Made by a program: the position numbers and the translations under genes. Below the pieces are notes generated by a model, which had not been told where the DNA came from, did no database searches, and saw only the letters and a program-made list of their open reading frames with translations. Shown piece after piece: positions 55,032 through 55,132 of a stretch of 64,000 bases of DNA (within the stretch, counting starts at the first letter, position 1; each line of letters begins with the position of its first letter). Source of the stretch: Escherichia coli (lineage in GTDB: Bacteria > Pseudomonadota > Gammaproteobacteria > Enterobacterales > Enterobacteriaceae); assembly GCF_003018115.1 (NCBI RefSeq), contig NZ_CP027457.1; one strand, 5' to 3'.

Positions 55032-55100
55032 TGGGGAAAGATTGGCTTCGATGCCGCCTTTTCCCCTCACCCTAACCCTCTCCCCAGAGGAGCGAGGGGA

Positions 55101-55126
55101 CCGATCGCGCTCAATGTTGCGATCGG
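55101..55126. terminator. Hairpin (ccgatcgc/gcgatcgg, 10 nt loop) between convergent tusA and zntA, next to a C-rich tract
   Basis: Inverted repeat read from sequence. Confidence 0.4.
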
Positions 55127-55132
55127 TTTGCC

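Follow-up and report, generated by a model that had tools for sequence, protein, structure and literature searches.

A C-rich tract between the convergent tusA and zntA genes of Escherichia coli, identified from its sequence as a copy of the BoxC (PIT/TMECO) repeat

Judged by its sequence, the C-rich tract between tusA and zntA in the 64,000-nucleotide stretch of Escherichia coli DNA that we analyzed (the window) is a copy of BoxC, a repeat also known as PIT (potential intrastrand triplex) or TMECO. A reading made earlier from the letters alone (the sequence-only reading) had suggested that the tract might be a repeat-family remnant, and this was essentially right: the copy is nearly intact and stands one base off the canonical form. 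The sequence was present as that reading described it, and the features that it listed were borne out, apart from the distance between a neighboring hairpin and the zntA stop codon. Both the family and this particular locus were already known. The odd pyrimidine tract in a convergent spacer is therefore of interest mainly as a negative, since a catalogued repeat requires no new category. The points that are new are minor ones, namely, the composite nature of the neighboring hairpin, the frequencies of the alleles of the spacer, the orientation of BoxC after tusA in two genera, and the coincidence of RNA 3' ends with other copies of the repeat.

To our knowledge, BoxC encodes nothing, and no cellular function has been demonstrated for it. 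Earlier papers on BoxC/PIT are reportedly those of Bergler et al. in 1992 and Hoyne et al. in 2000. BoxC was described in the 1990s as an intergenic palindromic repeat of E. coli, 56 bp long and present in about 32 copies (PMC2267715), and it can be summarized as a chromosomal intergenic repeat of about that length in Escherichia and related Enterobacteriaceae. According to the account given in PMC4666352, Maher's group re-described it as the PIT element, and in the same paper Holder et al. (2015) introduced the name TMECO and the pattern CCCTCNCCC-N3-6-GGGNGAGGG-N3-GGGNGAGGG. Table 1 of that paper lists 23 TMECOs in MG1655, and TMECO no. 16 is the sequence CCCTCGCCCCTCTGGGGAGAGGGTTAGGGTGAGGGG at 3,608,684-3,608,719. 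Within the library that we searched, the BoxC/TMECO literature held nothing later than Holder et al. 2015.

In the window, tusA (54786-55031, plus strand) encodes the sulfurtransferase TusA of 81 aa, and zntA (55133-57331, minus strand) encodes a Zn/Cd/Pb P-type ATPase of 732 aa; both were placed with the list of open reading frames and RefSeq annotation, which for tusA was that of identical E. coli DNA. The genes converge on a spacer of 101 bp (55032-55132), and the zntA stop codon, TAA, lies at 55135..55133 on the minus strand. Read on the plus strand, the C-rich tract is ttcccctcaccctaaccctctccccagaggagcgagggga (55061-55100), with 16 C and 0 G among the initial 26 nt. It can pair with itself, TCCCCTC (55062-55068) facing GAGGGGA (55094-55100) as inverted repeat I7, and folding also gave an inner stem of the CTCTC/GAGAG type. 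The 22-mer CCCTCACCCTAACCCTCTCCCC occurred a single time in the window and in 0 of 100 shuffles, even when 3 mismatches were allowed. Both this tract and the hairpin that follows it (hairpin 2) are far from what chance would produce. The C-rich strand of BoxC falls in the 3' UTR of the tusA mRNA and the G-rich strand in that of the zntA mRNA. Two open reading frames (65 aa and 103 aa) overlap the spacer; both cross the repeat, and they lie antisense to known genes or extend across them.

The orthology of the tract with a catalogued element was established from MG1655. In NC_000913.3, zntA ends at 3,608,649 and tusA occupies 3,608,751-3,608,996, which places TMECO no. 16 in this spacer at a distance of 34 nt from the zntA stop, just as the tract is placed in the window. 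The window and MG1655 spacers aligned without gaps, and within the core a single base differed; the 36-nt type-A core of the window (55098..55063, minus strand, CCCTCGCTCCTCTGGGGAGAGGGTTAGGGTGAGGGG) is the orthologue of TMECO no. 16, to which it is identical at 35 of 36 positions in a pairwise alignment. The substitution, from CCCTCGCCCC to CCCTCGCTCC when the window's minus strand is read, is the second mismatch in the C-rich arm. Because of this one base, the window copy falls outside the strict TMECO pattern, which gave 0 matches in the window; when position 8 of the first block was freed, 1 match was obtained, at 55064-55098 on the minus strand. Both G blocks fit the pattern exactly. By homology and orthology the copy can thus be classed as a BoxC member that is one base off the formal pattern. 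It resembles BoxC/PIT/TMECO in its three blocks, in the TTA second loop that marks type A, in the flanking GGTCCCC...GGGGAA(A/C)A, and in its locus, while it differs from a canonical TMECO in the substitution in the C-rich arm (CCCTCGCtCC) and corresponds to the "mutated TMECO" type of Holder et al.

The boundaries of the unit were taken from ten MG1655 type-A copies stacked on their cores. Conservation in the stack began about 17 nt ahead of GGTCCCC (consensus cAAaAacG.Gc.CGgAC), continued across the three blocks, and ended with GGGGAA(A/C)A. The corresponding unit in the window measures about 56-59 bp (55058-55116), with the canonical G-rich orientation on the minus strand and the C-rich strand on the plus strand, where it opens at TTTTCCCC. 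The BoxC plan of one C-rich and two G-rich blocks appears on the plus strand as two C-rich blocks and one G arm. In this reading the parts are TTTT (55059-55062), C block 1, CCCCTCACCC (55063-55072), TAA (55073-55075), C block 2, CCCTCTCCCC (55076-55085), AGA (55086-55088), the G arm, GGAGCGAGGGG (55089-55099), and a weakly conserved tail, ACCGATCGCGCTCAATG (55100-55116), with which the unit closes. The flanks fit the family consensus, as TTTT precedes CCCC, and GGGGACC is followed by a tail that agrees at 11 of 15 defined positions. The window copy therefore extends past the 36-nt core into conserved flanks, as a BoxC unit of about 56 bp does.

A blastn search with the 96-bp region, run on 5,426 complete E. 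coli genomes, had matches in 5,425. The matches amounted to 85,063 places, and a genome held a median of 17 related places and at most 32, a number far above what chance would give. Chromosomes held 85,029 of these places and plasmids 34, and such numbers identify a dispersed chromosomal repeat. The sequence-only reading had counted a lack of other genomic copies toward its refutation; the search found many. The tract also agrees with BoxC in its location, an intergenic spacer on the chromosome, and in the existence of multiple dispersed copies, ten of which were aligned from MG1655. Six of ten sampled single MG1655 copies lay between convergent genes. The exact 96-bp allele of the window had 2,615 identical records, which marks it as a common variant rather than an oddity of sequencing. 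The only Rfam match near the tract, to the Hrs13 sRNA (RF02631), was rejected, as it scored 19.7 bits against a gathering score of 52. Context also excludes this identity, since Hrs13 is Erwinia specific and lies between ansP and EAM2411; the match reflects a generic two-hairpin shape.

Hairpin 2 is a perfect 9-bp inverted repeat (I2) of ACCGATCGC (55100-55108) and GCGATCGGT (55119-55127) around a 10-nt loop. Its folding energy as DNA was about -10.5 kcal/mol (z of about -4) and was equaled by 0 of 200 shuffles; as RNA it reached -14 to -15.6 kcal/mol. The sequence-only reading had set it 7 bp before the zntA stop; the hairpin is present, but the distance is 5-6 nt. Since the BoxC unit ends in the tail described above, the left arm and the loop of hairpin 2 belong to that tail, and with a locus-specific right arm (55119-55127) the hairpin can be regarded as half BoxC. 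In E. albertii, in a MAG labelled Pseudocitrobacter, and in long E. coli alleles, the same right arm stands farther off; the sequence there is GCGGCTTGCAATCGG or similar, and the loop is 17 nt. Relative to the long alleles, the window allele carries a 7-nt deletion that shortens the loop from 17 to 10 nt, and a terminator-like hairpin has thus been tightened in the commonest allele. Hairpin 2 resembles intrinsic terminators in that its stem length and folding energy are typical of them and in that it is a GC-rich stem-loop shortly 3' of a stop codon. Unlike intrinsic terminators, which have a U tract of 7-8 nt, it is followed by 3 U in the tusA direction and by none in the zntA direction. The T-rich stretch after it in the tusA direction, TTTGCCTTA (55127-55135, plus strand), overlaps the zntA stop at 55133-55135 and would be at best a weak intrinsic-terminator tail.

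Another stem-loop, specific to the locus, covers the tusA stop codon (55020-55066, plus strand); it was seen as inverted repeats I3 and I6 and in the minimum-free-energy structure of the RNA. Its arms are either AAAGGCGG (55020-55027) and CCGCCTTT (55054-55061) or, in an alternative pairing, GGGGAAA (55033-55039) and TTTCCCC (55060-55066). This stem-loop encloses the tusA stop codon in the window allele, and the 3' arm runs into BoxC, overlapping its T-rich/C-rich start. The segment varies by allele, with a 13-nt indel in the alignment against E. albertii and the loci L044 and L004. The final three tusA codons and the initial 30 nt of the spacer likewise differ between alleles (GGCGGTTGA... 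versus TCGGGGTAA...).

Three structural alleles of the tusA-zntA locus were found among the 5,426 E. coli genomes. Allele a has the 101-bp spacer of the window and MG1655, with BoxC and the tight hairpin, and was counted in about 4,570 genomes with a junction-specific query. Allele b, carried for example by CFT073, has a spacer of 260-268 bp in which BoxC is followed by a REP pair (about 537 genomes). Allele c has a spacer of 555 bp with a REP pair, a 102-aa hypothetical open reading frame, its own hairpin beside the zntA stop, and no BoxC core (265 genomes). In allele c a remnant of the BoxC G arm is left, as GGCTAGCGGACC aligned to GGCGAGGGGACC of that arm; a 37-nt deletion therefore produced this allele, and the site had been occupied before. 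Because this piece is retained, the allele at L004 was rejected as a candidate for an unoccupied insertion site. E. albertii carries an orthologous, degenerate BoxC without the outer block in a long-allele context, and BoxC therefore has been at the site since before the divergence of these lineages. These comparisons indicate that the repeat at this locus decays by deletion and point mutation, as TMECO loci generally do (Holder et al. 2015, PMC4666352). Within E. coli, this spacer is a minor hotspot of structural alleles.

The 102-aa open reading frame corresponds to WP_000385061.1, a hypothetical and apparently membrane protein. Together with the REP pair it lies between tusA and zntA in 265 of the 5,426 E. 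coli genomes (for example, L004 447-755, MFDS1019527) and in the E. albertii locus L016. It is absent from the window, and 537 other genomes have the REP pair without it.

We compared tusA loci across 80 species. In Enterobacter spp., a type-B BoxC (e.g., CCCTCACCCCGGCCCTCTCCCACAGGGAGAGGG) lies 12-25 nt past the stop codon of tusA and is oriented as in Escherichia, with the C-rich strand in the tusA mRNA. In E. soli (L020), the inner hairpin alone is retained in a tusA-zntA spacer of 38 bp. Citrobacter spp. have REP elements at the BoxC position of the spacer, and many other genera have short spacers with neither BoxC nor REP. One and the same 3'-UTR niche is thus filled by different repeat families. 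The shared position on the tusA side could be due to an ancient orthologous copy that was later turned over or to insertions that hit one spot repeatedly. At the individual loci, L018, L019, L021, and L023 (Enterobacter) as well as L020 and L078 have a type-B BoxC or the inner hairpin only, 3-25 nt after the tusA stop. Those type-B copies in which the third block survives are oriented like the type-A copy of Escherichia.

The alternative offered by the sequence-only reading was a bidirectional intrinsic terminator, in which BoxC and/or hairpin 2 would stop RNA polymerase arriving from both tusA and zntA. Two strong GC-rich stem-loops do occupy the 101-bp convergent spacer, UUUGCCUU follows hairpin 2 in the tusA direction with a T-score of 2.8, and other BoxC hairpins of the genome do have RNA 3' ends mapped to them. 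The tails, however, do not suit intrinsic termination: those of hairpin 2 are UUUGCCUUAUCU in the tusA direction (the T-score of 2.8) and CCCCUCGCUCC in the zntA direction (0.15), those of the BoxC hairpin scored 0.13 and 0.01, and in the zntA direction there is no U tract, with T-scores of ≤0.15 (range, 0.01 to 0.15 for both stem-loops). Nowhere in the spacer is a GC-rich stem-loop joined to a U tract of about 7-8 nt, and a scan for consensus terminators returned nothing in it. In about 10% of strains, moreover, hairpin 2 is disrupted and a REP pair comes after it. Mapping of 3' ends, the check that the sequence-only reading had proposed, did not favor termination here either, as the curated MG1655 Term-seq data of Adams et al. 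(2021) for three conditions, which describe the MG1655 allele and not this strain, contain no 3' end at the orthologous spacer (3,608,6xx-3,608,7xx); low expression or peak thresholds could also cause such an absence. The supplements of the TERMITe paper have no tusA or zntA entry. On the tusA strand, the bicyclomycin data of Adams et al. place a Rho-termination region at 3,607,955 (minus), about 700 nt inside zntA and antisense to it, which fits read-through of the spacer, although an antisense promoter inside zntA, and not read-through from tusA, could be the source of that signal. In reporter tests, PIT elements had neither promoter nor terminator activity (Hoyne and Maher 2002, as summarized in PMC4666352). 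Because of the wrong tails, the lack of a scan match and of a Term-seq end, the Rho region downstream, and this literature, we consider a bidirectional terminator unlikely.

Two further explanations were weighed. In the proposal of Holder et al. (2015), the G-rich single strand would form an intrastrand purine-motif triplex, stall replication, and make the neighborhood prone to rearrangement. TMECO oligonucleotides formed stable triplexes in vitro and TMECO loci were more variable than control loci (PMC4666352), and the present locus has three structural alleles with indels on either side of BoxC, in one of which the BoxC core was lost through the 37-nt deletion. Nevertheless, DMS footprinting in vivo gave no support for a stable triplex (PMC4666352), and the large indels at this locus involve REP elements and a small open reading frame, which might be sufficient cause alone. 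The window copy, moreover, carries an extra mismatch and lies outside the TMECO pattern, yet it is the commonest allele (the 2,615 records identical over 96 bp); this T·G mismatch in the Watson-Crick arm would be expected to weaken a triplex. We therefore hold an explanation by triplex formation to be rather unlikely for this copy. The tract could also be the remnant of a nonautonomous mobile element (MITE-like) that inserted beside the tusA stop codon and is now decaying. A multicopy, sharply bounded unit of about 56 bp fits such an origin, BoxC at the tusA-zntA site is polymorphic for presence, absence, and degeneracy, and the types A and B occur in Escherichia and Enterobacter, respectively, at the same place and in the same orientation, which could mean repeated targeting. 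Against this, the stacked copies have no visible terminal inverted repeats or target-site duplication, BoxC is almost never on plasmids (34 of 85,063 places), and no link to mobile elements is on record in the literature (PMC4666352). The "empty" allele keeps a piece of the G arm, as a deletion product does, and orthologous copies in E. albertii and in another genus-level relative point to long residence. There is thus no positive evidence for a mobile-element origin, which we regard as quite improbable.

The reading that we prefer concerns the RNA, and it draws on 3' ends at other copies of BoxC. The 61-nt strings in the Term-seq table of Adams et al. (2021) were searched for BoxC words, with base 51 taken as the 3' end and the position of that base checked against the Table 1 coordinates. 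Term-seq 3' ends were present at five other MG1655 BoxC copies (NC_000913.3) and in both orientations: at 3781065+ (TMECO 17, downstream of lldD), 4231270-, and 632098+ the RNA is the C-rich strand, and at 847200- and 3959467- (TMECO 20) it is the G-rich strand. The end lay 4 nt past the base of the BoxC hairpin in four of the five copies and 13 nt past it in the remaining one, and none of the five has a U tract there. A strand asymmetry, with ends only where the RNA is C-rich, was rejected when shorter search words found the ends in the G orientation; the idea of a function of the C strand alone, such as a Rho-loading rut site, was dropped with it. Dar and Sorek (2018) described Rho-terminated transcripts that are trimmed by PNPase or RNase II back to a protective stem-loop, a role long assigned to REP elements. 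The ends at the five BoxC copies look like this pattern of exonuclease trimming and REP-type protection. The BoxC/TMECO paper of Holder et al. (2015) makes no mention of RNA 3' ends at BoxC hairpins.

On balance, we think it fairly probable that the tract is a tolerated BoxC repeat whose U-less stem-loops structure the 3' UTRs of tusA and zntA and protect the two mRNAs from exonucleases, much as REP elements do. Upon transcription from tusA (C-rich strand) or zntA (G-rich strand), BoxC and hairpin 2 would fold into stable stem-loops. The predicted folds agree with this: the spacer RNA had a minimum free energy of -57.4 kcal/mol (z of -4.4) in the tusA sense and -54.2 kcal/mol (z of -2.4) in the zntA sense, with values of -16.8 and -23.6 for the BoxC hairpin in these respective senses. 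As the stem-loops have no usable U tract, transcription would mostly pass through them and end further downstream, on the tusA side probably in a Rho-dependent manner. The stem-loops would then block 3'-to-5' exonucleases, and both convergent mRNAs would receive structured, protected 3' ends. For tusA and zntA we infer this protection from the other BoxC copies. Against such a role, the base change in the window weakens the BoxC hairpin by 1.8 to 3.6 kcal/mol compared with MG1655, the MG1655 Term-seq data for three conditions contain no 3' end at this spacer, and at this site the repeat is dispensable, given the 265 genomes without its core.

The likeness to REP/BIME elements has several aspects. 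Both are short, GC-rich, imperfectly palindromic intergenic repeats that are often found in 3' UTRs and where genes converge, the stem-loops of both lack U tracts and have RNA 3' ends mapped to them, and the tusA-zntA spacer itself is occupied by REP in Citrobacter and in long E. coli alleles. In contrast, the BoxC sequence is unrelated to REP, and its three blocks with triplex potential differ from a simple palindrome. REP elements have a transposase-like partner, RAYT, and in BIMEs the protein ligands gyrase and IHF, whereas we know of no RAYT-like partner or protein ligand for BoxC. Tentatively, and with more doubt than confidence, it may be proposed that the BoxC family as a whole acts as functional determinants of RNA 3' ends and forms a second class of U-less stem-loops, unrelated to REP, that in either orientation would set and shield the 3' ends of mRNAs terminated by Rho. 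If true, this would explain the enrichment of BoxC between convergent genes and its retention after tusA in Escherichia (type A) and Enterobacter (type B), and a repeat that has been without a cellular role for 30 years would gain one, with the tusA-zntA copy as one instance.

Two observations were made around tusA outside the spacer. On the tusA strand, between the divergent yhhQ and tusA, the window has a terminator-like hairpin, GGCGTAAACTAGCGCC (54746-54761), followed by GTTTTTTT (the whole at 54746-54776, plus strand), some 25 nt upstream of the start codon of tusA; the MG1655 Term-seq tables show no 3' end at this hairpin. Additionally, in genera in which zntA is not the neighbor of tusA (L018, L021, L023, L026, L029, and many more), a noncoding block that is absent from the window is conserved about 60-200 nt after tusA, and it contains TTTTGTGAGGCGCTTCACC, which resembles a CRP-type TGTGA-N6-TCAC site.
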